A stretch of 64,000 bases of DNA, taken from contig CAVTBR010000001.1 of assembly GCA_963733055.1 (NCBI GenBank), forward strand, positions 32,001 to 96,000, read 5' to 3'. This DNA comes from Candidatus Bathyarchaeota archaeon (GTDB taxonomy: Archaea; Thermoproteota; Bathyarchaeia; 40CM-2-53-6). A program made the position numbers and the translations under genes. The notes under the pieces are model-generated. The model did no database searches and was not told where the DNA came from. It saw only the letters and a program-made list of their open reading frames with translations. How positions within the stretch are numbered: position 1 is the stretch's first letter; the number at the start of each line of letters is the position of its first letter. Shown here in pieces: positions 8,958-32,279 of this stretch.

Positions 8958-9052
8958 ACAGGGCCTTATGGCCCTTCCACATCTTTTTCGGCAACAACGG
9001 CCTTACTCTGTGAGCCTAGGGCTCTCTGAGCGACGCGTATTCCATACTTTGT

Positions 9053-9520
9053 ATGGACATCGCTCCGGAAATTTGTGGGGCTTTCCATACTCGTAACCAC
9101 CTTTGCGATGACTACAAAATCAATAAATGGTACGGACCCTTCAAGGGCCTCATGGAAGCTGCGTTTCTAGTTCAACCGTGGATTCATACTCGCACGACGA
9201 TGGACTGTTGCAGGCTTTGCTACCAAGCAAGGGAAGGCTCAGGTTTTCTGGAGTGCAAACGTGCTCATTTGGGCGGCTTCAACTCCCTCTTGGCCATGCT
9301 CAGGATGGAGCCTAGACCTGAGTTCGGTGCAGCGATGAAGCATCTGGAGGACGCGAAAGAGACCTGCCTCGCATCTGCGAACCCGGATATGCGTTGCCAT
9401 GAGAAAATGCAGAACGCTCTACAGAGTACTCAGCTTCTTTTCGATCAGATGATTGACGATTACAAGCTCAAGTATTCAATGATGATTACGAACAAACCGT
9501 CGAAAGCGCCCCCGATGTAG
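9053..9520 (+). CDS. Cys/His-rich hypothetical protein
   Basis: 155-aa ORF filling the gap between genes; no family recognised. Confidence 0.55.
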   Translation: MDIAPEICGAFHTRNHLCDDYKINKWYGPFKGLMEAAFLVQPWIHTRTTMDCCRLCYQAREGSGFLECKRAHLGGFNSLLAMLRMEPRPEFGAAMKHLEDAKETCLASANPDMRCHEKMQNALQSTQLLFDQMIDDYKLKYSMMITNKPSKAPPM

Positions 9521-9670
9521 GCCGAGACTTCGGATTTTGTTAAGTCGGTAAATTTCTCTACTCGAGGACTTGTTGCCGGTAGCATTGTAGGTAACAGCTT
9601 ATCGAGCAAATGCCTCGACAACGAGGTTATTGCGCAATGCGTCCATGAAAATTGGGATGGAAGATTGGGG

Positions 9671-9835
9671 TTACTTTGCTCCGAGTTCGCGTTTCTTCGC
9701 ACGCAAGTTGTGGCCGTGGCACTTTCTGCACCTGTTCGACGCTTCTGGGTTACGCGCGCCACAGTCTCTGCAAACCTTGTAGTGTAACCTGACTTTCTGT
9801 GCGAGTTGCTTCTTTACGACATCAGTGATGGGCAT
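9671..9835 (-). CDS. rpl40e: 50S ribosomal protein L40e
   Basis: Translated by hand: MPITDVVKKQLAQKVRLHYKVCRDCGARNPEASNRCRKCHGHNLRAKKRELGAK; below ORF-track cutoff. Confidence 0.93.
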   Translation of the reverse strand: MPITDVVKKQLAQKVRLHYKVCRDCGARNPEASNRCRKCHGHNLRAKKRELGAK

Positions 9836-9952
9836 TGGTGAACCACTTAGATTAATTCGTCCTCTGAGACGGAAAAGTGCAATATATACCGTGTGTTGCC
9901 AAGGTCACGAGACAATACTTCGATTCCAGTCAGTCGAGAAGAGTTGAGGTGT

Positions 9953-10516
9953 ATGGAATCCCGAGATTCGATTGCTGAAGTGTCAAGCGAGGTAGTCGGT
10001 TGTACCAAATGCCGACTGTGTGAGACTCGACGAAAAGCAGTTCCGGGCGAAGGTCTGGAAAGATCAAGGGTCATATTCATAGGAGAAGCGCCGGGCGAAC
10101 AAGAGGATGCTCAAGGGCGACCGTTTGTCGGGGCCGCCGGAAAACTGTTGACCGAACTCCTAGTATCAGTTGGTTTGAGGCGGGAGGATGTTTACATTAC
10201 GAACATTGTCAAATGTAGGCCTCCGAACAATCGGCCTCCAAGAAAAGATGAATCATCCGCGTGTAGGCCTTACCTAGACCGGCAGATCAGTTTGATTGCT
10301 CCACGGATTATCTGCCCGATGGGGAACTCCGCAATCCACGCGTTAATGGATTCAGATAAGGGCGTGACGGATCTGCATGGGATGCCGCTTGAGATCGGGC
10401 AAGTTACCTTCTTTCCCATGTATCATCCAGCCGCTGCCCTCTACACCTTCCAGTTGAGGAAGGTGATGGAGGAGGATTTCAAACAGTTAAAGAGGTTATT
10501 GAATACTTACGGCTAA
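9953..10516 (+). CDS. udg: uracil-DNA glycosylase family 4; 3' end supplied by integrated element
   Basis: CTKCRLC Fe-S ligands, GEAPG, GRPFVG, KCRPPNNR, YHPAA. Confidence 0.93.
   Translation: MESRDSIAEVSSEVVGCTKCRLCETRRKAVPGEGLERSRVIFIGEAPGEQEDAQGRPFVGAAGKLLTELLVSVGLRREDVYITNIVKCRPPNNRPPRKDESSACRPYLDRQISLIAPRIICPMGNSAIHALMDSDKGVTDLHGMPLEIGQVTFFPMYHPAAALYTFQLRKVMEEDFKQLKRLLNTYG
10472..10481 (+). repeat. attL core GAGGATTTCA
   Basis: Identical to 16825-16834; in frame in udg (E-D-F). Confidence 0.85.
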
Positions 10517-10568
10517 GGCCGCTTTAGCGGGTATTAGGGATTCGCTGAACTACATGGAAGATTAACCC

Positions 10569-10596
10569 AAAAAAAAGAGGGTGGGCCGTTAAGCCC
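10569..10596 (-). terminator. hairpin plus U-tract terminator
   Basis: GGGC-TTAACG-GCCC then T8 on the minus strand, just after the stop of ORF 10605-10931. Confidence 0.55.
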
Positions 10597-10604
10597 GAAA
10601 CTCA

Positions 10605-10931
10605 TTACTTCTTAACGTATTTGGATGGGAACACGTACACGTCCGCACCTGACTTCCTAACCGCTACTGGGGGCTGTTTACCTTTAGGCGTAGTCTTACT
10701 TACCCTGCCTTTAATCGCTAGATACACGTTCGTTGCCCTATCAGCAGAGTTAAGACTAAGCTTAACCGTCTTAGTTTTGCCGTCGTTAATTAACGGGTCG
10801 TAGTCGCTTGAACGGTGGGCTTCAAGCACATTATCGGGCGGCGCAGGTAGAGTTTCAGTGTTAACTAAACCTTTAATCTGATACATCTGCGGCTTACCTT
10901 TATCGGAACCCGTATTCGCTGCCATAGCCAT
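10605..10931 (-). CDS. element hypothetical protein (basic, possibly DNA-binding)
   Basis: GGGGTGA ribosome-binding site upstream, terminator downstream, Lys-rich. Confidence 0.7.
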   Translation of the reverse strand: MAMAANTGSDKGKPQMYQIKGLVNTETLPAPPDNVLEAHRSSDYDPLINDGKTKTVKLSLNSADRATNVYLAIKGRVSKTTPKGKQPPVAVRKSGADVYVFPSKYVKK

Positions 10932-11058
10932 AAATCCAATTCACCCCCCGCACACTAAACATACCACCTCTACCCACACTAACATAATAAGCGTATTGAC
11001 TAAAGTCACTTTAAGTGAACCTTAACCTTGCCTCCTTAAACGTCTAGGCTTGCAGGCA

Positions 11059-11160
11059 TGTTAACGTGCTTACCCGTAAAACCGTGTATTTACCTCGTTA
11101 AACTCTGTATTCGTGTTTCATGCACCTTTGTTAACGGTACCGGTAAAACCCGTGTTTACC
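11059..11160. repeat. two imperfect direct repeats TGTTAACG..TACC.GTAAAACC(C)GTGT(A)TTTACC
   Basis: Copies at about 11059-11094 and 11129-11160. Confidence 0.55.
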
Positions 11161-11420
11161 CGCTTATTTCAGCTAACGGAGGCCACTTTGACCCCCGATT
11201 ACCTTCAGCAGGCAAAGAGTTGGCTGCATACTTGCTTGTGTATGGTAATACTATAGGGTTACTGGTTGCTAAAGCAACTTGAGTTGCTATACGGCATAGT
11301 AGGCTGCTGTTAGGTTACCTGCATTTACGGTTACCCTCCCCCATTACTCTAATGTACTATAGTGTACGTGGGAGGTTTATTGTTGTGTTGCTGCTGTCTG
11401 CCCCGTGCTGCCGCCTCCAT

Positions 11421-11528
11421 GTGCCTCTTAGTGCCCTATCATAAGGTGCCTACGGGTGCCCTCATAGAGAAACAAGGTGCCTTACTGCTATCAGATCGTA
11501 ATAGTCAAGTAACGTATAGTATGGTGCC
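11421..11528. repeat. cluster of six GTGCC motifs (iteron-like)
   Basis: GTGCC at 11421, 11431, 11446, 11456, 11477, 11524. Confidence 0.5.
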
Positions 11529-12013
11529 TGCTGCTGGATGGTTTACGTTGGTGTGGCCTGCCCTCCACCCCACCTTAATCGTAGTCTTAGCCCGCCCACC
11601 AGCCCCCAGCGCCACCCGTAACGGATAACCACCCATACTATTTCACTTCACCCTAAACCCCTACTATTACACCTACTACAAATAAGGCTTGAGTAATAGC
11701 ATAGTTATATAATAAGAATAAGTTCTACTCCTTGCTATCCGTGCCTGTAACGTGATGTATGCTAACCTAAGGTTTCCTTACGGAATTTATGGGTTCCGAA
11801 CTGGGTTTAAGGGAAGATTAGGGTTTATTGGCCCAAAAAATTTTTTGGTTCTATAGGACCTTCCCCTTTTTAGGTGAATTATGGTTGATTATGGTTATTT
11901 ATGTCTGTTTTAGCTTAACATCATGTTTGTTTAATCATACGTGACGCCATGTAACGACAAAGGACGTGTATTGACGGGAAAAGGCTGTATGTGGGAGGTT
12001 CTTCCTCCCTAGT

Positions 12014-12481
12014 GTGGGGCGGACAAATATGCCTCGTCCAACTCCACGCCTCACTCACGGTCTAATTATTTTAGGAGAAAGATTTTGTTTGAACCGTAAA
12101 AATAGTAAGCCGAATTGCTTTAGTAGGATTCGACCTTCAATCGCTCAGCAGCTCCAAGCCGTCGATCTTCTCGTGCAATTGTTTGGTAGAGTCATCAGTT
12201 GTCCTAAGTGTGGTAAGGCCGGTCGAATCAGCGTTAACCGAACTAACCATTACGCTGTGTATCGTTGCCGTGTCGGGTTAACGCCCACCCATCCGAAGCT
12301 CTGTAGCCTCGGCGTTTTTGACGGACGATTTCTACTTAACGACCCTGAAGGGTCAGAAGCCGTTCAAAGGCTGTGGCAACTGTTCCGGAACGTTGTTAGG
12401 CCGCTGGCTTTGTCGGTTGCTGAACGATCGCTGCTTGTTAAGATAAGAACGTACTCGAATAAGAAAGAAGGTGATAATTAA
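12014..12481 (+). CDS. zinc-finger protein of element
   Basis: CPKCG...HYAVYRC...HPKLCSLG; start uncertain. Confidence 0.6.
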   Translation: MGRTNMPRPTPRLTHGLIILGERFCLNRKNSKPNCFSRIRPSIAQQLQAVDLLVQLFGRVISCPKCGKAGRISVNRTNHYAVYRCRVGLTPTHPKLCSLGVFDGRFLLNDPEGSEAVQRLWQLFRNVVRPLALSVAERSLLVKIRTYSNKKEGDN

Positions 12482-13012
12482 ATGACAAATGAAATTAAGA
12501 AAGATGATGGAGCCTCCGAGCACCCCCCAGCAGGGAGTTGGGCTGAAGCAGCATGGGCTTACCAAAGACACCAAGAGGCCACGCAGCCTAAACCAGCTAC
12601 TCCACCTTACGGTTTCACAACGGAACAAGCTTCAAGGTTCAACCTTTTGGAAAACCTGAAGACCGCCCGTGAGAACCTACAGCAGAAATTGGAGGCTGAA
12701 GCCCCAGACATCAGTCGATTAGATGATACTACGCCGCTTACAGGCACGCCTTACACCTTGCTAACCTTTCCGGATACCGACACGATGGATCACTGGGTTT
12801 CAAACGCCGCCCCTAATATTCGGGTTTGGAAGACAGGAAAAAGTTCCTACAACATCTCTGTCTGGTGCATCGTATCTTACAACAACACTTCGGCCGGTAA
12901 GTTGCCGAGCGTGCCCGACCCAGAGAAGGACTTACGTAATAGTGGCCGTGACCAACCAGAGAATCCTTCTAACAGCCAGTCCGGCGGAGCAACCGACAAC
13001 GACTTTCCTTAA
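12482..13012 (+). CDS. element hypothetical protein
   Basis: GGTGA RBS and ATG abutting previous stop; short coiled-coil-like segment. Confidence 0.75.
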   Translation: MTNEIKKDDGASEHPPAGSWAEAAWAYQRHQEATQPKPATPPYGFTTEQASRFNLLENLKTARENLQQKLEAEAPDISRLDDTTPLTGTPYTLLTFPDTDTMDHWVSNAAPNIRVWKTGKSSYNISVWCIVSYNNTSAGKLPSVPDPEKDLRNSGRDQPENPSNSQSGGATDNDFP

Positions 13013-13076
13013 CCTCCCCTAATTCCTCCGTTCTTTTTTGGAGGCATATTTCCGTTAAAATGAATGTGAGTATGAA

Positions 13077-13370
13077 ATGAGTATTCTTGATTTAATTCGA
13101 CGTGGCCTTCCTCATATCTCGATTACTTATGGTAACGCCCCTACAGCCACTGCGCCTACTACTCCGCCGACACCTATAGTAACTAAACCGCCATTGCCAG
13201 TTAAGCCCCCGAAAATCACACACTTCAAGGATGGAAGCTGTCGTTTTGATTTTCCGGATTCGGAAAGTCAGCAGGCTTGGTTATTGGCCCACAGTGGCCG
13301 TCCACTAATTTTCCAAATTGCACCTGAACGGACGACTACCGCTTTTGTCCTCAGCGGGGTAGACAGGTAG
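13077..13370 (+). CDS. element hypothetical protein, Pro/Thr-rich linker
   Basis: ATG-start ORF collinear with neighbours. Confidence 0.65.
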   Translation: MSILDLIRRGLPHISITYGNAPTATAPTTPPTPIVTKPPLPVKPPKITHFKDGSCRFDFPDSESQQAWLLAHSGRPLIFQIAPERTTTAFVLSGVDR

Positions 13371-13380
13371 GTAGTCTAGC

Positions 13381-13530
13381 ATGGAATCGAAAACGTATCG
13401 CTGTTCCCGCTGTGGCAGAACCGTAAGTGCCCCGAAGAACATTTACAGTTTCACGGACCAAGCCAACGTGAGGCGTAGGCTGCATAGAGCCGACTGTGGG
13501 TTGCTTAAAGCCGTAAAAAGGGGTGAGTGA
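13381..13530 (+). CDS. small zinc-finger protein (49 aa, CxxC...HxxxC)
   Basis: Translated by hand: MESKTYRCSRCGRTVSAPKNIYSFTDQANVRRRLHRADCGLLKAVKRGE. Confidence 0.6.
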   Translation: MESKTYRCSRCGRTVSAPKNIYSFTDQANVRRRLHRADCGLLKAVKRGE

Positions 13531-13686
13531 AACTTAACAAATCATCTAACCGTATTTACCGACCTTCCATCTGCTCAAGCTATGGCTGGCGTTACCGGAA
13601 CCGTCGTGTCCGTGTGGAGTAACGCAACTATGAGTCAAATCCTCATTCTCTGGCACGATTAAGGCTGATTTCCGGGGTTCTTAACC

Positions 13687-19251: not shown

Positions 19252-19890
19252 TTACCAGTGTTCGTAATGTACAACTTGTGCGGGCGGCTTTCGGCCGCGT
19301 TTCAGCGAAGGTGATTTGACGTCCTCTGCGGGCAAGCCGATTGATATGACTCCAACGGGATGATAGTGCTCTGGAATCCCGAGTAGCTTCTTCATCTCTT
19401 GGACTCGAAATACGCCCGTGAAGGCTGAGGCGTAACCTTCGTCGACTGCTGCTAGGAAGATTAGCATGCATGCGGCGCCGATGTCAAAGTGCCAGTACGG
19501 TGTGGGCCATTCGATCTCGGTTCCGTCCTCTTGGAGTTTGTCTGCTTCTCGGTATCGATCGTGGTAGACCTTTTCGCTAGTACACGCCACTATTAACAAC
19601 GGAGCCTCTGACACGAACTTATGGAATCGATCAGCGTAGAAGTCAGCTTCCCCTTGGAGGTTCCCTACTTGTTTCCTCAACTTCTCGTCTTGCACCACAA
19701 CATATGCCCAGCCCTGGCTGAAACCGGCGCTCGGCGCATGCAAGGTGAGATTAAGAATTCTGTCGACAGTCTCCTTTGGTACAGGCTTTGACTGGAAGTT
19801 TCTGACCATTCTTCGCTTTAGGACTACCTTCTCGAATTCCATTTGCAACCCAATCGCCAACTGTGGGTCGGGAGATTTGAATAATTGCAA
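19252..19890 (-). CDS. nitroreductase family protein
   Basis: RRMVRNF, APSAGFSQGW; start probably at MEFEKVV. Confidence 0.88.
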   Translation of the reverse strand: MQLFKSPDPQLAIGLQMEFEKVVLKRRMVRNFQSKPVPKETVDRILNLTLHAPSAGFSQGWAYVVVQDEKLRKQVGNLQGEADFYADRFHKFVSEAPLLIVACTSEKVYHDRYREADKLQEDGTEIEWPTPYWHFDIGAACMLIFLAAVDEGYASAFTGVFRVQEMKKLLGIPEHYHPVGVISIGLPAEDVKSPSLKRGRKPPAQVVHYEHW

Positions 19891-20783: not shown

Positions 20784-21929
20784 CTAAACGCGTTGAAACT
20801 GATCCTTTGTTACAGTTTCTTTCGAAATTGTCTTCGATTCAAGAAATTCTTCATCCACTTGAACTCCTATTCCAGGTTCACGCGGCACCTCAATCGTTCC
20901 AGCCCCCGTTAGTTCGAACTCTTGTTTGATTATGTCTTTCTCGAAATACAGTTTGCTTGCGGAAATGTCACCAGGAAAGGTGAAGCCTGGCAGGGAAGCC
21001 AATGCGACATTAAATGCTCTGCCAATTCCGGTTTCAAGCATTCCGCCGCACCATACTGGAATCTTCCGTGCCATGCAAAAATCGTGCAGCTCTCTCGAAC
21101 ACCCCAAGCCTCTAACCCGTCCTGGTTTGATGTTTATGACTCTGCACGCATCGATCTCTACCGCTTGACGCACGTCGTTCACACTTCGTATGCTCTCGTC
21201 AAGACAAACGGGTGTTGAAAGCTGCTTCTGCAATTTCGAATGATCAATGAGATCGTTAGGGGCTAGGGGCTGCTCAATCAGTAACAGTTTGAAGCCGTCA
21301 AGCTGTTTCAATATATGCGAATCCTCAAGAGTATAGGCCGAGTTCGCGTCCACTTGGAGTGGAATATCAGGGAAACGTTTCCTAATCGCCCTCACTGGTT
21401 CGAGATCGAACCCTGGTTTAATTTTGATTTTTATCCGCCTGTATCTCTCGGCAAGACGCGATGTGACCTTGTCGACGAGGCTCTGGATTGAAGGTTGAAT
21501 ACCTACACTTACTCCAGCTTCAACCTCCGTCTTACTTCCTTTGAGTAGCTTGGAAATTGGTTGGTGTGTTAACTTTCCCATGAGATCCCAGAGTGCCATT
21601 TCGACCGCGGCTACGGCCATATTGTTTCCTCTTAATCTTCGACTGGAATCAAGAAACTGGGCGGGAGTCGTGAATAGGTTTGCAAAAAGTGATGGCGCAA
21701 GGAATTTCTTGATGACGTAGCTGGCAGACATTATGGTCTCTTCGCTATACCAAGGCCCATTTCCAGCAACACATTCTCCGTAAGCAGTAAGCCCGTCCTT
21801 TTTGACGATCACAATCAGAGCCTCCTTAACGGATTCTACGCCAAGATTGCTCTCGAAATTGGAAACGAGCGGTAATCGGACAATGCGCAATTCCAGGGAA
21901 TCGATAGGCGTCAGTTCAGGAGAATCCAT
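20784..21929 (-). CDS. menC: o-succinylbenzoate synthase (OSBS/NAAAR, enolase superfamily)
   Basis: KIKIKPG, VDANSAY, IEQP, CLDES, NIKPGRV, WCGGMLE, PGDIS; divergent from men operon. Confidence 0.9.
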   Translation of the reverse strand: MDSPELTPIDSLELRIVRLPLVSNFESNLGVESVKEALIVIVKKDGLTAYGECVAGNGPWYSEETIMSASYVIKKFLAPSLFANLFTTPAQFLDSSRRLRGNNMAVAAVEMALWDLMGKLTHQPISKLLKGSKTEVEAGVSVGIQPSIQSLVDKVTSRLAERYRRIKIKIKPGFDLEPVRAIRKRFPDIPLQVDANSAYTLEDSHILKQLDGFKLLLIEQPLAPNDLIDHSKLQKQLSTPVCLDESIRSVNDVRQAVEIDACRVINIKPGRVRGLGCSRELHDFCMARKIPVWCGGMLETGIGRAFNVALASLPGFTFPGDISASKLYFEKDIIKQEFELTGAGTIEVPREPGIGVQVDEEFLESKTISKETVTKDQFQRV

Positions 21930-22161
21930 CTTCCCAGCTACCTCGCATCTGAATGAGATTCCTCGTGATTCTAATAGGCCCCGCGACGGTCTGGCTCAAT
22001 GCAACGCATATGTCCCATCTAATTGCAGTCCTCCTTTTATCAAGAATACCGTGCCCATCTCGCAATTAGCCGGAGGAGCTTAGAATTAGGATAGGTTCTT
22101 CTGTCTGAGAAATCATGAGCAACAACGCCGCCATCGGGAAGAGAGAAGCGGGAGAGGCAAG

Positions 22162-23613
22162 ATGCGAAGAAGATCTTTAGAAATTCAGTCCCAAAACAGT
22201 GAGATGGCGGGCTTACCTCAACCTTCCGATTCGATTTCATTCGGCAGAGTACTTGAGTTGATTTCGGATGGAAATCGATGCGCCGCTGAAATGAGCAGAC
22301 CGATACTTGTATCCCTCACCCAGCCTCTTAGACTCGAAAACGATCCTGAACAACTCTTCTCCGCGGCATCGCGAATTGACAGTACTAGGAACTACTGGGC
22401 CCTACCTGCGAAGAAATCTTGGAGTGTGGGCGCCGGTAAGGCGGCTGACATAGTCGCTGAGGGCTCTCAAAGATTCCAACGAGCCGCTACCTCACTTCTG
22501 GATACGATGAATTCGGCGATTGTTGAGGAAAACGGCGGTCCCGGACCAATTTTCATGGGGGGCTTCAGGTTCAACCCACTATCACCTGTTGAAGGGCTTT
22601 GGGAGGATTTTCACGATGGACTGCTGACACTGCCCCGGTGGGTGATTACATCTCAACCGAACGGGCGACGCTGGGTGACCATCAATGTGGTTGTGAATGG
22701 ACGCACGAAGATTGATTCGCTACAAAAGGATCTGAAGACTCAAGCCGCCGACCTCTTCGATTCGCCCAGTGACTTCCCGGAACCTGTGTCTGCTTCAATA
22801 AGATCTCAACCGGCTGTTGATCTTTGGCGACGAAGTGTGGAACAGGCTCTGGACGCAGTCAAAGACGGAAGACTGACCAAAGTCACTTTGGCGAGAATCC
22901 TAAAACTCCGCGCTAGGACACCCATAATTCCCGAGATTGTCCTTCGAAGCCTCGCAACCAATTACCCCGAATGTCAAGTATTCGCCTTCTGCCGGTCGGG
23001 TACATGTTTCGTAGGAGCTTCCCCCGAGGATTTAGTGAGCCTTCACGATGAGCAGGTGAGTTCGACCTGTTTGGCGGGTTCAGCCCCCCGCGGCGCTTCG
23101 GAGACCGAGGACTCGAAGCTTTCGGAGTGGCTGTTAGGAAATGTTAAGGAACGAAGAGAACACGAAGTCGTCGTCGACTGGATTTCTGAACGAATGGGAA
23201 AGCTCTGCTCTAAACTTCAGTGGGACGACGACCCCCATTTGATGCGGCTAGGGAACGTTCAGCATTTAGCGACCCGTTTTACGGGCAAGCCAAAGAAAGG
23301 CGTCAATGTCCTGGATTTTGTCAATGCGTTACACCCAACGCCCGCCGTTGGTGGCATACCTCTTGAGCCAGCCCTTGAAATGATTGAGAGGCTTGAGAAG
23401 TTTGATCGCGGTTGGTATACGGGACCGGTTGGATGGGTTGACAGGAATGGGGACGGGGAATTCGCCATCGCAATTCGATGTGCGCTCTTGCGTGGCAATG
23501 AGGCGTTCCTGTACGCAGGGGCCGGTATTGTTGCCGGATCGGACCCAGACCGCGAAGATCAGGAGACTATGATCAAATTCAAGCCACTCCTGACGGCCCT
23601 GGGAGTGCCTTGA
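22162..23613 (+). CDS. menF: isochorismate synthase
   Basis: KVTLAR, GASPE, CLAGS, KERREH, LHPTPAVGG, RGWYTG, AGAGIV. Confidence 0.92.
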   Translation: MRRRSLEIQSQNSEMAGLPQPSDSISFGRVLELISDGNRCAAEMSRPILVSLTQPLRLENDPEQLFSAASRIDSTRNYWALPAKKSWSVGAGKAADIVAEGSQRFQRAATSLLDTMNSAIVEENGGPGPIFMGGFRFNPLSPVEGLWEDFHDGLLTLPRWVITSQPNGRRWVTINVVVNGRTKIDSLQKDLKTQAADLFDSPSDFPEPVSASIRSQPAVDLWRRSVEQALDAVKDGRLTKVTLARILKLRARTPIIPEIVLRSLATNYPECQVFAFCRSGTCFVGASPEDLVSLHDEQVSSTCLAGSAPRGASETEDSKLSEWLLGNVKERREHEVVVDWISERMGKLCSKLQWDDDPHLMRLGNVQHLATRFTGKPKKGVNVLDFVNALHPTPAVGGIPLEPALEMIERLEKFDRGWYTGPVGWVDRNGDGEFAIAIRCALLRGNEAFLYAGAGIVAGSDPDREDQETMIKFKPLLTALGVP

Positions 23614-25403
23614 TGCCTCTCCCACCGAATCGCAACTACGCTTTCTCAGAAGCATTTGTTGATGAACTCTACCGTTCAGGCCTGCGACATGCCTGCATCT
23701 GTCCAGGTTCGCGATCAACACCCTTAGTGATTAGCCTAGCGAAGCAAGAGCGTATCAAGGTCTGGGTCCATTCGGACGAGCGTTCGGCTGCGTACTTCTC
23801 GCTTGGGATGAGCCGGGCCCTTAGCGCGCCAGTCGCGGTCGTTAGCACGTCGGGTACAGCTGCGGCTAATTTCTTTCCCGCCGTAATCGAGGCTTACTAT
23901 TCACATGTGCCAATCTTGATTTTGACCGCGGATCGTCCCCCAGAGTTGTGGGAATGGGGTGCGAACCAAACAATCGACCAGACTCGGATGTATGGAGGCC
24001 ACGCGAAGTGGTCGGTGAACATGGCTACTCCAGAGTTCACGCTTGACTTGCTGAGGTATGTTCGTGAAATTGCGTGCCGCGCATTGAGCACGGCGATTCA
24101 ATCGCCCGCTGGGCCCGTGCACATCAACTTCCCGTTCGGAGAGCCATTAGTACCCAAGGATGTTCCAGCGGAAATCCCAGAACACTCCTCGCTGGGAACC
24201 CAAAACGCTTGGGAAGGTCGGAAGCAAGCCAGAGCCTACACAGACGTCCGGAATGGGCGGCGATTTATCAACAGAGAGCAGGTCAAGGAGTTAGCGGGAG
24301 AGATACAGACCCTGAGCGAGGGGGTTATCGTTTGTGGGTCTCAGTATGATTTAGGCTTCCCCCAAGCGGTCTCGACTCTAGCCAACCGCTTGGGCTTCCC
24401 AATACTCGCAGACCCCCTATCCCAAGTTCGGTGCGGTACGCACGACCGAAGCCTCATCGTTGATTGCTACGACGCTTTCCTACGCTCTAGGAGAGTGGCG
24501 GAGGCATTGGAACCTGAAATTATCCTGCGGTTCGGCGCCACGCCCACGTCCAAGGCATTACAAGAATACATTGAGCAACACCACCGGGCCAGGCAAATAC
24601 TAGTCCGAGAGGGAGACTGGCAAGACCCAATGCATACGGCCACCGACATGTTTCAGACCGACCCCGGCCAATTCGCAAGAGAACTTGCAACTGAGACCAC
24701 CAGTACTCGCCAAAGAAAGTGGTCGGACACTTGGTTGGCTGTCGCTGAGAGAACACGTCAAGCTATTCATGGCGAGATGAGCAAAATCGAAGAGATGTTT
24801 GAAGGGAAGATTTTCGCGAACCTAGCGGCTTTCTTTCCACCCAAAGCAACATTGTTTGCGGGCAACAGTATGCCGGTGCGTGACCTTGACTCATTCTATC
24901 CGTCCACTTCTCAGGAGGTCCGATTTTTGGCGAATCGAGGAGCGAGCGGAATAGATGGAGTAATCTCCACAGCGCTAGGAGCCAGCGCGGTTACCAAGGA
25001 TCCAACGGTGCTCGTGGTCGGCGATCTTTCTTTCTACCAAGACATGAATGGTTTGCTGGCGGCGATGAAATACGGTCTCAATGCAACTATCGTGTTAGCA
25101 AATAATGATGGCGGCGGCATTTTCTCCTTTCTTCCTCAGCGAGAGTACAAGGACTACTTCGAAAAGTACTTCGCGACCCCACACGGCCTTACCTTCCGCG
25201 CCGCGGCCTCCCTATACGGTCTAACCTATTCCAAGGCTACGTCGTGGGAAGAATTCCATACCGCCGTTTCGCGGAACGTGGGATCCACGGGCACGGGCGT
25301 AGTGGAATTGCAAACTAATAGAGATCGAAACGTTGAGCTTCACCGTCGCATTTGGTCAGTTGCAACCGAGGCGGCGGAGGGCACGCTCATGGAGCGGACT
25401 TGA
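23610..25403 (+). CDS. menD: SEPHCHC synthase
   Basis: PGSRSTPL, DERSAA, TSGTAAAN, TADRP, NRGASGIDG, GDLSF, NNDGGGIF. Confidence 0.95.
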   Translation: MMPLPPNRNYAFSEAFVDELYRSGLRHACICPGSRSTPLVISLAKQERIKVWVHSDERSAAYFSLGMSRALSAPVAVVSTSGTAAANFFPAVIEAYYSHVPILILTADRPPELWEWGANQTIDQTRMYGGHAKWSVNMATPEFTLDLLRYVREIACRALSTAIQSPAGPVHINFPFGEPLVPKDVPAEIPEHSSLGTQNAWEGRKQARAYTDVRNGRRFINREQVKELAGEIQTLSEGVIVCGSQYDLGFPQAVSTLANRLGFPILADPLSQVRCGTHDRSLIVDCYDAFLRSRRVAEALEPEIILRFGATPTSKALQEYIEQHHRARQILVREGDWQDPMHTATDMFQTDPGQFARELATETTSTRQRKWSDTWLAVAERTRQAIHGEMSKIEEMFEGKIFANLAAFFPPKATLFAGNSMPVRDLDSFYPSTSQEVRFLANRGASGIDGVISTALGASAVTKDPTVLVVGDLSFYQDMNGLLAAMKYGLNATIVLANNDGGGIFSFLPQREYKDYFEKYFATPHGLTFRAAASLYGLTYSKATSWEEFHTAVSRNVGSTGTGVVELQTNRDRNVELHRRIWSVATEAAEGTLMERT

Positions 25404-25407
25404 AGGC

Positions 25408-26217
25408 GTGCTGGTCGACGAAGTCAATCTAAATGTCAAGGCTGTGGGTTCGGGTCCAGCAATCTTAGCACTTCACGGATTCTCAGGGTCTATGTCCACC
25501 TGGAGCGAGTTCGTGGAGGAGGCGCAGAAAGAATACAGGATTATTACAGTCGACTTGTTAGGGCATGGAGGTTCAGATGCTCCCAGCGATCCCAAGAGAT
25601 ATCGTGTGGAACAATCCATCGCCGACCTTGCTGCGGTTCTAGACAAGTCAGATGTCGCCAATGCTTGCTGGTTAGGGTATTCTATGGGGGGCCGGATCGC
25701 TCTCGGAGCCGCTGCGTTAATGCCTGAAAGGTGTGGGTGTTTAGTGCTTGAAGGAGCTTCCCCCGGGATTGACGAACCCAAACAAAGGGCAGAGAGGAAG
25801 AGACGCGATGACGCGCTGGCACGCCTGATTATGAAAGAAGGCATCGAGACGTTTTCGAAATACTGGGAGCAACAGCCAATATTTGCCAGCCAAAAACTTC
25901 TCCCCCTTGAAGTTCAAGAACAAATCAGAAACCAGCGGCTCAAAAACAACCCTACAGGGCTCGCGAACACTTTACGCGCCGCAAGCTCCGGCGTCCAGCC
26001 CCCCTTCCACAAATCACTTCCTAACATCAAAATCCCCGTCCTCTGCATTGCTGGCGAATACGACCACAAGTTCTCTGCCATCGCAGAAGACATGTGCAGC
26101 AAGCTACCAAACGGGCACCTTTCCATCATACCAGGTGCGGGACATGCTCCGCACATTGAGAAGCCTGAGGAATTCAACAGAATCGTACTGGGCTTCCTCC
26201 GTGAATCGAATTGGTAG
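25408..26217 (+). CDS. menH: SHCHC synthase (alpha/beta hydrolase)
   Basis: LHGFSG, GYSMGGRIAL, 'RKRRDDALA', GHAPH; GTG start just after menD stop. Confidence 0.9.
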   Translation: MLVDEVNLNVKAVGSGPAILALHGFSGSMSTWSEFVEEAQKEYRIITVDLLGHGGSDAPSDPKRYRVEQSIADLAAVLDKSDVANACWLGYSMGGRIALGAAALMPERCGCLVLEGASPGIDEPKQRAERKRRDDALARLIMKEGIETFSKYWEQQPIFASQKLLPLEVQEQIRNQRLKNNPTGLANTLRAASSGVQPPFHKSLPNIKIPVLCIAGEYDHKFSAIAEDMCSKLPNGHLSIIPGAGHAPHIEKPEEFNRIVLGFLRESNW

Positions 26218-26290
26218 TTATTACGTCATCCTTGGCTCAGTAACTGGTTCACCACAGAGTATAATTTCGCTGGCTTCAATCTCTTGCCTC

Positions 26291-27517
26291 ATGATTAGCC
26301 GAAAGTCTTCCAGGGACAATCCTAGACTGAATCCATTAGCCGGGATAACCGTCCTAGAAATAAGCCACATACTCTCTGGCCCGTTCTGCACCATGCTTCT
26401 TGCAGATCTTGGCGCGAAGGTTATCAAAGTTGAGCGGCCGAACTTGGGAGATGAAGCGCGACGATTAGGTCCCCAAGTGAGCGGAGATAGCGCGTATTTC
26501 ATGAGCGTAAATCGAGGAAAGAAGAGCATCACTATCGATCTTTCCCGCGAGGAGGGCCAGAAGTTGGCCCGGGAACTGTGCCAGCACGTTGACATTCTTG
26601 TCGAGAACTTTGTTCCTGGGACAATGCAGAGATTCGGTCTCGACTATGCGAAGGTAGGGGCGCTCAATCCTCGTCTGATCTACACATCGATCTCAGGCTT
26701 CGGCCAAAGCGGTCCCTATACCCACCATCCCGCCCTGGATATTATTGTTCAAGCGATGGGCGGCATTATGAGCGTGACGGGTGAACCCAATGGCCGTCCC
26801 TTGCGGCCCGGGGCATCGCTCGGAGATAGCGTCGCCGGCCTCTTCGCTGCGTTAGCAATACTCAGCGCTCTGTTGGAGAGAGAACGCACGGGCCGGGGGC
26901 GATATGTCGACGTCTCGATGCTAGACTGTCAAGTCACTATGATGGAGAACGCGTTTTCAAGGTACTTTGCCACGGGTGAGGTACCGGGACCGCTGGGATC
27001 ACGCCACCCTGCCGCAGTTCCCTTCCAGTCGTTTGCGACACAGGACGGATACATAGTGGTTGCACTAATCTCCGACAGCCCCGAACCCTGGAACCGCTTC
27101 TGTACCGCGATCGGGCACCCTGACCTTGCGAAAGACCCTCGTTTTGTTGACGCACCATCTAGAGTTCAGAACTACGGCGTGCTCGCGCCTATGATCGAAG
27201 AGGCGATGCGCAGGAAGTCTTCGCGAGAATGGCTTGAAGAATTCTCGCGCCTTGAAATTCCGTGCGGCCCGGTAAACAATGTGGGCGCAGTAGCTAAGGA
27301 CCCTCAGATACTCTCCCGCGGTATGATCGCAAAGATACCCCACAAAAAGTTGGGCGAATGGAAGGTCGCCAATACTCCCTTCAAGGCGGACGGTGCCTCC
27401 TCAGGCCCACAAGGTCCTTCGCCAGACTTAGGTGAGCATACCGACGAAGTGCTTCAAGAAATGCTCGGCCGTTCCCAGAATGAGATTGCCCGCTTGAGAT
27501 CGCTCGGCTTGGTTTGA
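26291..27517 (+). CDS. CoA-transferase family III (CaiB/BaiF/Frc-like), inside men operon
   Basis: LADLGAKVIKVE, NRGKKSI, VENF, catalytic Asp in GASLGDSVAG, PDLGEHT; ORF-track start at 25883 overlaps menH and is unlikely. Confidence 0.92.
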   Translation: MISRKSSRDNPRLNPLAGITVLEISHILSGPFCTMLLADLGAKVIKVERPNLGDEARRLGPQVSGDSAYFMSVNRGKKSITIDLSREEGQKLARELCQHVDILVENFVPGTMQRFGLDYAKVGALNPRLIYTSISGFGQSGPYTHHPALDIIVQAMGGIMSVTGEPNGRPLRPGASLGDSVAGLFAALAILSALLERERTGRGRYVDVSMLDCQVTMMENAFSRYFATGEVPGPLGSRHPAAVPFQSFATQDGYIVVALISDSPEPWNRFCTAIGHPDLAKDPRFVDAPSRVQNYGVLAPMIEEAMRRKSSREWLEEFSRLEIPCGPVNNVGAVAKDPQILSRGMIAKIPHKKLGEWKVANTPFKADGASSGPQGPSPDLGEHTDEVLQEMLGRSQNEIARLRSLGLV

Positions 27518-27573
27518 AAACGACCCTCTTAAGAAGCAAGCGCTGAGTAAAACTAGGAAAGTGGATATTCCAA

Positions 27574-28371
27574 ATGGAATTCAAAGACATATTTTACGAA
27601 AAGAAGGAAGGGGTAGCTTTCGTTCGAATTAACCGCCCGAAGGTTCTCAACGCCTTTCGACCGTTGACGATAGATGAGATGCGGCAGGCTTTCGTAGACG
27701 CTTGGTACGATCCGGAAGTTGGAGTTGTTGTTCTCACAGGGACAAACGGTAACTTTTGTTCAGGCGGTGATGTGAACGTTCGGGGAGAGGGTGGTTATGA
27801 GGACGATTCGGGCACGCTGAGGCTGCAAGTTACGCATCTGCACAGGTTGATACGAGAAATACCGAAGCCCGTCATCGCAATGGTGGATGGTTACGCGATC
27901 GGCGGGGGACATGTCCTTCATGTGTTATGTGACTTGACGGTTGCCTCCACGCGTGCAGTCTTCGGACAGATAGGGCCTAAGTACGGTAGCTTCGACGGAG
28001 GATTCGGGTCCATTTACCTCGCGCGCATTGTTGGGGAAAAGAAGGCACGAGAGATCTGGTACCTATGCCGTCGTTACTCTGCCCAAGAAGCACTAGACAT
28101 GGGACTCGTCAACTTTGTCTTCCCTCCGGATCAACTCGAGAACGAGGTGGTGTCTATGGCTCAGGAACTGCTCCAGCGCTCACCGACTGCTTTGCGATTT
28201 CTGAAGTTTGCCTTCAACTCAGACACGGACCACGTCTACGGGACACAGAATCTAGCACACGGCGCTACAGCCCTTTACTACGCGAGTGAGGAATGCAAGG
28301 AGGGCACGAGAGCCTTCCTTGAGAAACGCGCGCCAAACTACGCTCGCTTTCGAAAGCAACCTCCTTGGTAG
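27574..28371 (+). CDS. menB: 1,4-dihydroxy-2-naphthoyl-CoA synthase
   Basis: NAFRP, FCSGGD, AIGGGHVLH, GSFDGGFG, GEKKAREIW. Confidence 0.95.
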   Translation: MEFKDIFYEKKEGVAFVRINRPKVLNAFRPLTIDEMRQAFVDAWYDPEVGVVVLTGTNGNFCSGGDVNVRGEGGYEDDSGTLRLQVTHLHRLIREIPKPVIAMVDGYAIGGGHVLHVLCDLTVASTRAVFGQIGPKYGSFDGGFGSIYLARIVGEKKAREIWYLCRRYSAQEALDMGLVNFVFPPDQLENEVVSMAQELLQRSPTALRFLKFAFNSDTDHVYGTQNLAHGATALYYASEECKEGTRAFLEKRAPNYARFRKQPPW

Positions 28372-28427
28372 ATAATCACCCCACCAGCCCGACATCATGA
28401 ATTCAAAACGCAGTACGCGTTTCATAA

Positions 28428-29381
28428 TTGAGACGGGATCTGGCCGTGCAGCAGAGAAGCAACAGGCACTCATTAGCCGTCTGGTACGTTGCGCTTAGGC
28501 CATTTACCTATCCGGCGTCAATCGTCCCCGTGCTTGTGGGTTCTGCCGTGGCTTGGTATAGGGGACACACGGATTTGGTTCTCTTTCTGCTCACCCTGTT
28601 CGGGTCCGTAGCGGTGCAGGCGGGAACGAACTTAGCCAACGAATATTTTGACTATGTGCAGGGAGTTGATAGAGCGGACTCTTTGGGTCCCGCCGGCGTA
28701 ATTCTTGGAGGAAAACTCAGACCAAGGCAAGTGCTCTGTGCAGCAATAGTGGCTTTTGGTTGTGGTACGATCGCTGGTGTGTATATAGCCGCGCAAGTTG
28801 GATGGATCATCCTAGTTCTCGGAGTAACGAGCGTTCTGGCAGCCTGGTTCTACACTGCGAAACCTCTCTCGCTGGGTTACAGGGGCCTTGGGGAGCTGGA
28901 GGTTTTCGTATTTATGGGTCCCGTCACGGTTCTCGCGAGCTATTACGTTCAAGCCAGAAGCCTCGCCTGGAGCCCCCTGCTGCTCTCTCTCCCCGTAGCT
29001 CTTCTAGTAACCGCCATTCTTCACGCTAACAACCTGCGAGACATTGTGCAAGACAACGAGCGACATCGAATTACTTGGGCAGTGCTGGCGTGTAGATCTT
29101 GGGGTATGGAGCGAGGCAGGATTTTTTCCCGTTTCGTCTATTGCGCGATGCTGGCGGGAGCCTATATGATCTTAACTGGACTTGTTGCGACACATGCCGC
29201 CCCTCTACCGACGCTCTTGACGTTCCTTACGATCCCGCAAGCATATTGGCTCATTCGGTTTGTGGCTTCGGGAGTCGAAGGCAAGGCACTCAGCCGCGCT
29301 GTTCGAGGCACGGCACGCCTCCAGATGTCATTTGGCGTGACATTGACTGTTGGGTACTTACTTGCTATGTTGATGCGCTAA
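28428..29381 (+). CDS. menA: 1,4-dihydroxy-2-naphthoate prenyltransferase
   Basis: RPFT, NEYFDYVQGVD, LGYRGLGE, ANNLRD; multiple TM helices. Confidence 0.92.
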   Translation: MRRDLAVQQRSNRHSLAVWYVALRPFTYPASIVPVLVGSAVAWYRGHTDLVLFLLTLFGSVAVQAGTNLANEYFDYVQGVDRADSLGPAGVILGGKLRPRQVLCAAIVAFGCGTIAGVYIAAQVGWIILVLGVTSVLAAWFYTAKPLSLGYRGLGELEVFVFMGPVTVLASYYVQARSLAWSPLLLSLPVALLVTAILHANNLRDIVQDNERHRITWAVLACRSWGMERGRIFSRFVYCAMLAGAYMILTGLVATHAAPLPTLLTFLTIPQAYWLIRFVASGVEGKALSRAVRGTARLQMSFGVTLTVGYLLAMLMR

Positions 29382-29612: not shown

Positions 29613-32279
29613 ATGGCCAGTATCGAGAAGATGCTAAACCCCAAGACAGTCGCGGTGATCGGGGCTTCTGAGAGCGAAGGATCGATTGGACAATCTCTGA
29701 CCAAGAACCTGTTGCTGGGAAGAGACCACAGGAAAATCTACCCCGTGAACGTAAACCGGGAAATGGTCATGGGCCTGAAGTGTTACCCATCAGTATCCAA
29801 GATACCAGAGCATGTCGACTTGGCTGTTATTGCCACTCCTGCAAGAACTGTTCCATCTATAGTGAGCGAATGTGCGAAGGCTGGCGTGGATGGCGCCGTT
29901 ATTGTTTCAGCGGGTTTCCGTGAAGTCGGAACGGCTGGGGCAAAGTTGGAGGATGAGATCAAGCAAATTCAATCGGCGCATGACATTCGAATACTAGGAC
30001 CAAACTGTGTGGGCGTGGCGAGACCGCAGATCGCCCTCAATGTCACATTCCTCCGAGACAACCCTCAACCAGGCCAGATCGCATTCATATCTCAGAGCGG
30101 CGCGCTAGGCTCTGCGATAGTAAACTGGGCCGTAAGTACAGGAATAGGGTTCAGCATTTTCGCTTCCCTGGGTTCTACACTGGACATCGATTACGGGGAC
30201 ATGATCGATTATCTTGGGGAGGACCCTAACACTAAGAGCATCATCGTTTACATGGAGGGCGTCGGAAACGCCAAGAAGTTCATGAGTTCGGCAAGAGGCT
30301 TTGCACGTACAAAACCGATTATCGTAATCAAAGCCGGAAGAAACGCCGCTGGCGCAAAGGCGGCTTCGTCGCATACCGGCGCACTTGCGGGTGACTTCGC
30401 CGTTTACGAAGCCGCCTTCAAGAGAGCTGGAGTTGTGATGGTTGATGAGATTGGAGACCTCTTCAACTGCGCTACCGTCTTGGACTCAAGGTTTCTTCCC
30501 GCGGGCCCGAACTTAGCCATCGTCACAAACGCCGGAGGGCCAGCGGTGCTAGCTGCTGACTCAGTCGTCACTCATGGCGGACAGCTGGCTCAGTTGTCCG
30601 ATGAGTCCATGAAAATATTGAATGGAGCCCTCCCGCCATACTGGAGCCGAGGAAACCCCCTTGACATACTAGGGGACTCTGATGTTTCTAGGTATGAGCT
30701 CGCTGTGAAAACGTGCATTGCGGATCCGAATGTCGATGGACTCCTTGTAATCTACACCCCTCAGGGAACGACTCAACCCACCCAACTTGCCGAAGCGGTT
30801 ACAAAAATCGCTGCAGACAGACGTAAGCCAATGCTTACGGTCTGGATGGGCGAGAGCAGCGTCAGAGAAGCCCGCGAGATATTCCATCGAAACGACATAC
30901 CTACTTACTCAACGCCTGAGGAAGCGGTGAAGACCTACGCATACATGTACCAATACCGACGAAACCTAGACCAACTCTACCAAACTCCCCAGGAACTACG
31001 CGTGGACTTCTCACCGCCCAAGAGCCATCTCAAACTCATGATCCGAAAGGCGGCGAAGACCCGAAAAGCCCTAACTCAACCCGAAGTAGATCGGTTCCTC
31101 GATGCCTACGGGATTCCAAGGGCAAAGGGATCCATAAGCAAAAGCGCGGACCAGGCGGCAATGATCGCCTTAGACATCGGTTTTCCGGTAGCGCTAAAGA
31201 TTTCTTCCGAGGACATTCTTCACAAAACAGACATTGGCGGAGTCGTCACCGGCCTTAGCTCAGCCCAAGCGGTCAAGGACGCGTATAAGGCAATTATCGA
31301 GAGGGCGCACAAAGCGAAACCTGAAGCTAAAGTCGACGGCGTCTACGTGCAAGAAATGGCATCTGCGATAGACTATGAACTTATCCTCGGCTCGAAAAAA
31401 GACAGAGACTTTGGATCGGTTATTCTATTCGGAATGGGCGGGACCGCAGTCGAACTCATTAACGATGTGTCGATCGGACTTGCGCCCCTGAATCAAATTC
31501 TGGCCCATCGAGTCATGGAAGAGACAAAAATCTACAGAGCTCTTACCAAAGGCCTTCGGAACAAGAAAGCCATAGACCTACAGCCCCTCGAAGAGATTAT
31601 GGTGCGATTCTCGAATCTGATTGTGGATTTTCCTGAAATTGCTGAAATGGACATCAACCCACTCATAGCTAACAACGGCAAATTCATCGCTCTCGATGCA
31701 AGAATGATAATCGACCCTAGCGCGCTCAGCCGGGCCGAAGCCTACCCACACCTAGTAATCACTCCCTATCCCTCTAAGTATGTTGTCCCATGGAGATTGA
31801 AGGACGGCACCGAGGTAACTCTGCGGCCCATAAAACCCGAAGATGAACCCATCGAACTTGAGTTCATACGGGGCTTGTCGACGGAAACGAGCCGATTCAG
31901 GTTCTTCCAAATAATCAAGGATCTACCACACGACGCCCTCGTCCGTTTCTGCAACATCGACTACGACAGGGAGATGGCCATCATCGCCGAAGCCCGAGAA
32001 GGAAATCGAACAGTGGAGATTGGAGTAAGCCGCCTAATTCTGGAACCCAACAAGAAACGGGGAGAATTCGCCGTCGTGGTTGCTGACAAGCATCAAAGAA
32101 AGGGGCTTGGGATTAAGCTGGTCGATATGCTGATTGATTTCGCTAAGGAGAAGGGCATTGAGACTATTTATGGAACGGTGATGGCGGAGAACATAGGTAT
32201 GATACGGCTCTGCGAGAAACTTGGCTTCTCCACTCGAAGAGAGCAGGAGAACACGATTGCAGAGCTAAAGCTAACCTGA
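29613..32279 (+). CDS. ADP-forming acyl-CoA synthetase-like/GNAT fusion (Pat/PatZ-type)
   Basis: CoA-binding N-terminus, GPNC, SQSGA, SHTGALAG, ATP-grasp HKTDIGGV, C-terminal GNAT (QRKGLG). Confidence 0.9.
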   Translation: MASIEKMLNPKTVAVIGASESEGSIGQSLTKNLLLGRDHRKIYPVNVNREMVMGLKCYPSVSKIPEHVDLAVIATPARTVPSIVSECAKAGVDGAVIVSAGFREVGTAGAKLEDEIKQIQSAHDIRILGPNCVGVARPQIALNVTFLRDNPQPGQIAFISQSGALGSAIVNWAVSTGIGFSIFASLGSTLDIDYGDMIDYLGEDPNTKSIIVYMEGVGNAKKFMSSARGFARTKPIIVIKAGRNAAGAKAASSHTGALAGDFAVYEAAFKRAGVVMVDEIGDLFNCATVLDSRFLPAGPNLAIVTNAGGPAVLAADSVVTHGGQLAQLSDESMKILNGALPPYWSRGNPLDILGDSDVSRYELAVKTCIADPNVDGLLVIYTPQGTTQPTQLAEAVTKIAADRRKPMLTVWMGESSVREAREIFHRNDIPTYSTPEEAVKTYAYMYQYRRNLDQLYQTPQELRVDFSPPKSHLKLMIRKAAKTRKALTQPEVDRFLDAYGIPRAKGSISKSADQAAMIALDIGFPVALKISSEDILHKTDIGGVVTGLSSAQAVKDAYKAIIERAHKAKPEAKVDGVYVQEMASAIDYELILGSKKDRDFGSVILFGMGGTAVELINDVSIGLAPLNQILAHRVMEETKIYRALTKGLRNKKAIDLQPLEEIMVRFSNLIVDFPEIAEMDINPLIANNGKFIALDARMIIDPSALSRAEAYPHLVITPYPSKYVVPWRLKDGTEVTLRPIKPEDEPIELEFIRGLSTETSRFRFFQIIKDLPHDALVRFCNIDYDREMAIIAEAREGNRTVEIGVSRLILEPNKKRGEFAVVVADKHQRKGLGIKLVDMLIDFAKEKGIETIYGTVMAENIGMIRLCEKLGFSTRREQENTIAELKLT

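Follow-up and report, generated by a model that had tools for sequence, protein, structure and literature searches.

Textbooks present the o-succinylbenzoate (OSB) route to menaquinone as a standard pathway, in which the AMP-forming OSB-coenzyme A (CoA) ligase MenE (EC 6.2.1.26) is treated as an obligatory step and as a drug target. To our knowledge, the only CoA-dependent steps of this classical route are those of MenE, MenB and MenI. The menE gene sits next to menB in many bacterial men operons. Among family III CoA-transferases, enzymes of the CaiB and FldA type hand CoA from a product thioester to an incoming acid, and BbsEF, which consists of two different subunits, takes part in anaerobic toluene catabolism. 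Here, a men cluster was analyzed in which the position of menE beside menB is held by a gene encoding a family III CoA-transferase (26291-27517, plus strand). The cluster lies in a stretch of 64,000 nucleotides (nt), hereafter the window, from the Candidatus Bathyarchaeota archaeon assembly GCA_963733055.1 (contig CAVTBR010000001.1; G000:C1:32001-96000), G000 being the window's genome (2.88 Mb, three contigs, 96% complete). Genomes are labeled G and loci L throughout, and gene calls were obtained from the listing of open reading frames (ORFs) together with Pfam and NCBIfam hidden Markov model (HMM) scans. A first-pass annotation of the window had suggested that this single transferase could replace both MenE and MenI. 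From our analysis, we propose that OSB-CoA is formed by the transferase instead of by MenE, with a probability of about 0.7, a figure that includes the case in which the CoA donor is the thioester of 1,4-dihydroxy-2-naphthoate (DHNA-CoA). For the core of this proposal, the predicted replacement of MenE, synteny, phylogeny and phyletic pattern provide good support.

Linkage of the transferase to men genes

The surroundings of the transferase were compared among relatives in a scan of one genome per species (80 loci), in which neighbors were tested by local tblastn with the Men proteins of the window, and in a metagenome scan run with the alignment of the transferase clade (80 more loci). On genome contigs, men clusters were found at eight of the ten loci with a transferase at least 57% identical to that of the window (L015-L021 and L023, with L022 and L030 outside such clusters), and true men neighbors at none of the 70 loci of 55% identity or less. 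On metagenome contigs, all four loci of at least 59% identity were men-linked (L128, L129, L130 and L156), and true menB was found at none of the 76 loci of 51% identity or less. Two genomes of the window's own genus add to these. G661 carries the entire cluster in the same order as the window, and a 4.2-kb contig of G287 ends within a transferase of 62% identity, which is followed directly by menB-menA and then by menC. Linkage of the clade to men operons, which the first-pass annotation had proposed to survey, was observed at 14 of the 15 other clade loci and at none of the 146 more distant homologs. Since it was found again at 14 other loci, the arrangement lies far beyond chance.

In bacteria, the cluster typically opens with menF-menD-menH, continues with an oppositely oriented menC and closes with transferase-menB-menA. 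In all 12 loci whose downstream side was visible, the transferase stop codon lies less than 80 nt before a same-strand menB. Because the CoA-dependent steps of the route are only those of MenE, MenB and MenI, OSB, DHNA-CoA or both must be the substrates of a transferase that is fixed in such clusters. In a quick IQ-TREE phylogeny of 82 sequences, nine linked sequences and that of L030 formed one clade (SH-aLRT support of 100, stem of 0.53).

Weak neighbor matches among the 70 unlinked genome loci were generic crotonases of 31-33% identity (L025, L032), an ADP-forming acyl-CoA synthetase (ACD) of 32% (L047) and a menC homolog (L087). The last of these, from Acidaminobacter, was considered as a men cluster and rejected, as it looks like an N-succinyl-amino-acid module. 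At L087:2616-9176, an enzyme of the MenC/N-succinyl-amino-acid racemase family (TIGR01928, 361 bits) is encoded immediately before a family III CoA-transferase of 47% identity; an M20 deacylase and a YfcC-type transporter adjoin, and no other men genes are present. In what resembles an N-succinyl-amino-acid racemase module, succinyl-CoA may be regenerated by this transferase.

The transferase itself is a protein of 408 amino acids (aa), and homologs of 408 aa with 86-91% identity span 100% of the query; its start is therefore supported as the ATG at 26291. Residues 16-384 match positions 1-366 of the 366 of the PF02515 profile (430.4 bits, full length), CoA_transf_3 is the sole Pfam domain, and there is no match to the AMP-binding domain PF00501. 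No NCBIfam equivalog cut-off was reached. The best score was that of succinate-glutarate CoA-transferase (NF052585, 342.7 bits for a cut-off of 750), followed by CoA:oxalate (NF008511, 308.8 for 522), succinyl-CoA:mesaconate (NF041294, 301.8 for 700), formyl-CoA (TIGR03253, 288.3 for 504.2) and L-carnitine (NF002914, 124.6 for 413) CoA-transferases. The matches listed from a large protein database comprise 120 clusters of at least 59% identity, and those that bear a name carry generic ones (CaiB/BaiF family, CoA:oxalate CoA-transferase, CoA transferase).

The motif GASLGDSVAG, in which the first-pass annotation had recognized the catalytic aspartate, is present, and its D179 aligns to the aspartate of GVAMTDLATG in human SUGCT. 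In the portion of the SUGCT paper that deals with the active site, Asp212 is given as the catalytic residue, and the site is described as large, open, located at the dimer interface and binding aromatic carboxylic acids close to this aspartate. By an offset of 33, chain residue 179 would correspond to Asp212. The position of D179 is occupied by Asp in 118 of 118 clade sequences and in 72 of 72 outgroup sequences of the alignment. When residues conserved in at least 90% of the clade and shared by at most 10% of the outgroup were taken as clade-specific, seven were obtained: S180, T216, A242, I349, W357, F364 and P373. S180 directly follows the catalytic D179 and replaces an Ile found in 78% of the outgroup, and at A242 the outgroup has Ile in 64%. 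These changes from bulky to small residues at 180 and 242 would fit a pocket reshaped for a larger acid, although they are suggestive only.

OSB activation and DHNA-CoA release

The search for MenE was extended from the window to whole genomes. No protein above the TIGR01923 cut-off was found in any of the ten genomes with a linked transferase (G000, G293 (=G301), G287 and G302-G308), nor in two additional MenB-positive genomes whose clade or near-clade copy is unlinked. In G000 the best match reached 232.7 bits for a cut-off of 330.15 and is a FadD-like ligase. The complete AMP-binding inventory of this genome comprises three loci, namely this 549-aa FadD-like ligase, Acs (TIGR02188, 889.9 bits, cut-off 724.95) and an acetoacetate-CoA ligase split in two ORFs. 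The PF00501 inventories of five other carriers are decisive. In G303 and G306, Acs is the only AMP-binding protein (NF003313, about 883-886 bits for a cut-off of 729). G304 (2.55 Mb) and G308 (2.19 Mb), both assembled as a single chromosome, encode Acs and one protein of about 835 aa, which in G304 combines AMP-binding, PP-binding and acyltransferase domains in the manner of an Aas-like lipid enzyme. One FadD-like ligase is present in G302. Hence, neither of the two findings that would have spoken against the first-pass annotation, a bona fide menE elsewhere in the genome and a lack of conserved linkage, was made.

The FadD-like ligase of G000 was considered as a divergent MenE and rejected, since its orthologs are common in genomes of the same genus that lack MenB. 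Among the 22 other genomes of this genus, 16 carry such an ortholog (56-82% identity), and 7 of these 16 belong to the 10 genomes in which MenB was not matched. The MenB-negative genomes G311 and G313 also have FadD-like ligases, with scores of 230-277 bits against the MenE model, so ligases of this type are not pathway-specific. The split acetoacetate-CoA ligase of G000 lies on the minus strand at G000:C1:278212-280214 (L003:179-2181), where adjacent ORFs of 279 and 387 aa match positions 4-253 and 271-652 of the 657 of NF002937; the split reflects either a frameshift, a pseudogene or an assembly error.

In our proposal, the aliphatic carboxylate of OSB, the predicted substrate, would receive CoA from a thioester already at hand, by way of the family III aspartyl-anhydride mechanism at D179 of the transferase. 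The resulting OSB-CoA would be the substrate of the adjacent MenB, and the ATP-to-AMP ligase MenE would be replaced. As for the donor, the best PDB match of the transferase is SUGCT (9br7, E = 8e-86, residues 9-408), the two subunits of benzylsuccinate CoA-transferase match with E = 1e-47 and 6e-41, and the best relatives across NCBIfam and PDB are succinate-glutarate, succinyl-CoA:mesaconate and SUGCT enzymes. Because OSB, an aryl-keto-substituted succinate, has a succinyl side chain and the nearest characterized relatives use succinyl-CoA with dicarboxylates, succinyl-CoA is the most likely donor by analogy.

Downstream of MenB, DHNA-CoA would be released by a 4HBT-type hot-dog thioesterase, men-adjacent in several sister genomes and encoded elsewhere in G000. 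This is illustrated by a hot-dog protein of about 139 aa directly after menA in L017, L018 (4HBT_2 40.2 bits, 4HBT 38.2 bits), L020 and L023, and by a homolog about 0.9 kb upstream of menB-menA in G310. These men-adjacent thioesterases belong to the YbgC/FadM-4HBT branch and match solved 4-hydroxybenzoyl-CoA thioesterases; their similarity to MenI_Staph is weak (27-45 bits, cut-off 225). Homologs were found in 8 of 12 genomes, those of G000, G293 and G287 being unlinked and 33-35% identical, and no match at E = 1e-8 or better was obtained in the other four (G302, G305, G307 and G309). The homolog of G000 is a 146-aa 4HBT_2 protein (G000:C1:1347671-1348111), 33% identical to the thioesterase of L018 and located beside an MFS transporter, with only 34 bits on MenI_Staph for the same cut-off. 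The window contains no match to PF00501 or PF03061, and the four matches to each in the genome all lie outside it, in line with the first-pass annotation, which had noted no AMP-forming OSB-CoA ligase and no hot-dog gene there. The reported lack of a hot-dog thioesterase thus holds for the window and not for the genome, where such enzymes occur, including a homolog of the one that follows menA in sister clusters.

These data bear on a special case of our proposal, a closed CoA cycle in which the transferase takes CoA from DHNA-CoA to OSB without ATP and so replaces both MenE and MenI. CoA would then act catalytically, an outside thioester such as succinyl-CoA would merely prime or top up the cycle, a thioesterase, where present, would be an overflow valve, and the naphthoate ring would be formed without ATP or net CoA-thioester input. 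We regard such a cycle as possible but doubtful. It shares the evidence of synteny and of MenE absence with the broader proposal, no thioesterase follows menA in the window, L015, L019 and L021, and the four genomes blank for the thioesterase query fit it as well. Several family III enzymes are also known to return CoA from the pathway product to the substrate (CaiB, FldA, and BbsEF with succinyl-CoA). However, the thioesterases after menA in L017, L018, L020 and L023 and near menB in G310 would be redundant, and G000, G293 and G287 each have their own homolog. Moreover, the nearest characterized relatives take aliphatic dicarboxyl-CoA donors, whereas the aryl thioester DHNA-CoA differs in its chemistry from the succinyl-type end at which OSB would accept CoA. 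Because a thioesterase is men-adjacent in five genomes and homologs exist in the window's genus, hydrolysis of DHNA-CoA by a 4HBT thioesterase would be the simpler reading. The suggestion of the first-pass annotation that one transferase covers both steps is therefore retained for MenE, given the linkage and the lack of a MenE over cut-off, and weakened for MenI, given the thioesterase beside men genes in these five genomes.

Rival readings and the weight of the evidence

Several observations weigh against the replacement of MenE by the transferase. The TIGR01923 cut-off is insensitive, as it was passed in 4 of 14 control genomes when MenB was found in 7, and a score below cut-off is by itself weak evidence for the carriers of FadD-like ligases (G000, G293, G287, G302, G305 and G307). 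Main reliance was placed on the complete ligase inventories, because TIGR01923 alone would overcall absence. The 16 loci of the clade are related to one another and count as few independent events. The donor is assigned by family resemblance only. The clade also has one member without men linkage, L030, in a Dehalococcoidia metagenome-assembled genome. Its neighbors (L030:3420-13017) encode an HsaD/BphD-like meta-cleavage hydrolase, a taurine-dioxygenase-like protein, an aldo-keto reductase, an MFS transporter and the alpha subunit of a ring-hydroxylating dioxygenase. The genome of L030 has menB-menA elsewhere and no MenE over cut-off. This setting hints that the clade may stem from, or also serve, the activation of aromatic-acid breakdown products. 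Finally, in the cluster of G661 (L216, G661:C16:99000-118900, approximately 8827-13600), menB, menH and menD are each in two or three frame-shifted pieces, and the transferase, menA, menF, menC and the flanking ACD-GNAT gene are intact. Either errors in long-read assembly or incipient decay of the cluster account for these frameshifts. G661 was also considered as a counter-example with a transferase and no MenB, and rejected, since menB is present, its tblastn match being broken into two pieces, a sign of a frameshift.

In another reading, the transferase would be a passenger, for instance of succinate or dicarboxylate metabolism, with OSB-CoA made by a generic ligase, or the cluster would be an inactive relic. 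We consider this very improbable. Family III transferases are indeed abundant paralogs in these lineages, with up to six matches per genome, and the aromatic-catabolism context of L030, the frameshifted cluster of G661 and the FadD-like ligases of some carriers are all compatible with it. Nevertheless, the slot directly upstream of menB is kept in every one of the 12 visible loci, across two domains and with differing flanks, which argues against a passenger, and, apart from Acs and the Aas-like fusion, no generic ligase is encoded in G303, G304, G306 and G308. A relic is at odds with the window, in which all the other cluster genes are intact and over their family cut-offs.

A different route to OSB-CoA is offered by the ACD flank, which likewise weighs on the negative side. 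The gene that follows menA in the window (29613-32279, plus strand) encodes a Pat-like ACD-GNAT protein of 888 aa with CoA_binding_2, Succ_CoA_lig, Ligase_CoA_2, ATP-grasp_5 and GNAT domains. Its TIGR02717 score is 533.9 bits for a cut-off of 567.15, and the ACD domain may be catalytically active, because the histidine motif SHTGALAG is kept. ACD homologs were found in 11 of 12 genomes, the remaining one, G309, giving no match at E = 1e-30 or better. Because of this spread, and of the adjacent, motif-intact copy in the window's genus, an ACD could activate OSB. The transferase would then replace MenI only, passing CoA from DHNA-CoA to succinate or acetate, with OSB activated by the ACD or by a promiscuous ligase. 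We judge this unlikely. In its favor, besides the breadth of the homologs, ACD-GNAT adjoins the cluster in the window, G661 and L015 with the motif kept. On the other hand, the ACD is men-adjacent in one genus only and on opposite sides in the window and in L015, which looks like a conserved flank and not like an operon member, and G309 gave no ACD match at the threshold used. A substitute for MenI would also be redundant in the five genomes with a men-adjacent thioesterase, exactly where the linkage of the transferase is tightest.

The flank itself is informative. ACD-GNAT follows menA in the window and in G661, and stands beside menF on the opposite strand in L015, a locus of a Candidatus Bathyarchaeia archaeon of the same genus (L015:994-3654). 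A nitroreductase/BluB-like gene, found at 19252-19890 in the window, is at L015:12079-12672, so that the two flanking genes have swapped sides. Since both changed sides, the menF-menA block has been inverted between conserved flanks. No menC was detected within the 17-kb L015 locus, and the 8-kb flanks of the Dehalococcoidia clusters lack ACD-GNAT. We therefore read ACD-GNAT as a neighbor, probably outside the pathway, and as a rival OSB activator for the window's genus only. The formation of OSB-CoA by the transferase remains the reading that we prefer.

The archaeal cluster and its relation to known enzymes

All six classical Men proteins of the window exceed their family cut-offs in the HMM scan, and the genes lie as the first-pass annotation had described them, menF-menD-menH-transferase-menB-menA being co-oriented and menC divergent. 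The o-succinylbenzoate synthase gene menC is on the minus strand (20784-21929; TIGR01928 347.7 bits, cut-off 200.65; MR_MLE_N and MR_MLE_C domains), divergent from menF. On the plus strand follow the isochorismate synthase gene menF (22162-23613; TIGR00543 332.2 bits, cut-off 224.75; Chorismate_bind 256.9 bits), menD for SEPHCHC synthase, a thiamine diphosphate enzyme (23610-25403; TIGR00173 492.5 bits, cut-off 244.2), and menH for SHCHC synthase, an alpha/beta hydrolase (25333-26217; TIGR03695 263.3 bits, cut-off 208.55). The start of menH is uncertain, as the family match opens at residue 41. After the transferase come menB for DHNA-CoA synthase, the consumer of OSB-CoA (27574-28371; NF005637 392.1 bits, cut-off 380; TIGR01929 365.6 bits, cut-off 342.7), and menA for DHNA polyprenyltransferase (28428-29381; TIGR00751 159.2 bits, cut-off 102.15; UbiA domain). 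The gaps measure 73 nt between menH and the transferase, 56 nt between the transferase and menB, and 56 nt between menB and menA. For MenG/UbiE (TIGR01934), the best match of G000 has 157.6 bits for a cut-off of 158.35, and 8 of 12 genomes exceed this cut-off. Neither promoter-like sites (7 compared with 8.3 ± 3.2 in shuffles, with a sigma-70 scan model that does not apply to an archaeon) nor terminator-like sites (12 compared with 13.4 ± 4.7) gave a signal.

G000 gave no match to Sigma70_r2, in a search that was positive in all 10 bacterial and in none of the 4 archaeal controls, and has two genes for TATA-binding protein, one of them on the contig of the window (C1:1496076-1496591). The host genome is therefore archaeal, and so are the class and phylum samples drawn around it. 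MenB over cut-off was found in 3 of 301 genomes of the class, all in the window's genus, and in 1 of 401 genomes of the phylum, which is G000 itself; a complete classical OSB-route men cluster is thus very rare in the host lineage. Within the genus, the clade transferase is present in 4 of 23 genomes, and menB adjoins it in those same four. The other carriers are assigned to Dehalococcoidia or Chloroflexota, and bacterial PriA, TrmD and TetR genes are present at L018. As the host is archaeal and the other carriers are Dehalococcoidia, the men module common to them and to one archaeal genus has moved between domains. In the unrooted tree, the archaeal transferase pair is nested among Chloroflexota sequences, and the whole module would have passed from Dehalococcoidia into the archaeal genus.

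A side observation concerns G310 (L121, G310:C20:1-14000), whose MenB is 83% identical to the archaeal one, compared with 72-77% for the linked Dehalococcoidia clusters. The best transferase of this genome (L022) is 57% identical, falls just outside the clade and is unlinked. The histories of MenB and of the transferase may not be fully congruent.

What is proposed here is a new specificity in a known enzyme family, within a known pathway. The first-pass annotation knew of no description of such a variant, and neither an OSB CoA-transferase nor a men operon with a family III transferase was found in the full-text literature, subscription journals and supplementary files being outside this scope. 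The pertinent section of one article speculates that peroxisomal CoA transferases of low specificity once activated OSB in early algae (PMC6189191). If our proposal is true, family III would gain a new activity, that of an OSB CoA-transferase, and the ATP cost of OSB activation would be halved or removed, which is relevant to energy-starved subsurface organisms. No EC entry is known to us for this activity. Genome-based predictions that deny menaquinone synthesis to these Dehalococcoidia and archaea for want of menE would also be corrected, and a whole quinone-biosynthesis module would be documented across the boundary between bacteria and archaea. Should the closed cycle operate, an energy-saving module would have spread between Dehalococcoidia and Bathyarchaeia-type archaea, both of them energy-limited.

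Compared with MenE, the transferase would deliver the same product, OSB-CoA for MenB. It is unrelated in fold and chemistry, and would use no ATP, the thioester energy coming instead from the donor acyl-CoA. The SUGCT group and the bacterial succinate-glutarate CoA-transferases share with it the membership of family III, the best PDB and NCBIfam matches and an aligned catalytic Asp, whereas the transferase of the window scores far below their equivalog cut-off and belongs to a clade apart from them, with a distinct residue signature and a men-operon context. CaiB and FldA provide a precedent for the logic of a DHNA-CoA:OSB cycle, but the score of the transferase on the carnitine model NF002914 is weak. 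The closest chemical analogy to OSB is found with the succinyl-CoA:(R)-benzylsuccinate CoA-transferase BbsEF, which activates an aryl-substituted succinate with succinyl-CoA; unlike it, the transferase of the window is encoded by a single gene in a biosynthetic operon.

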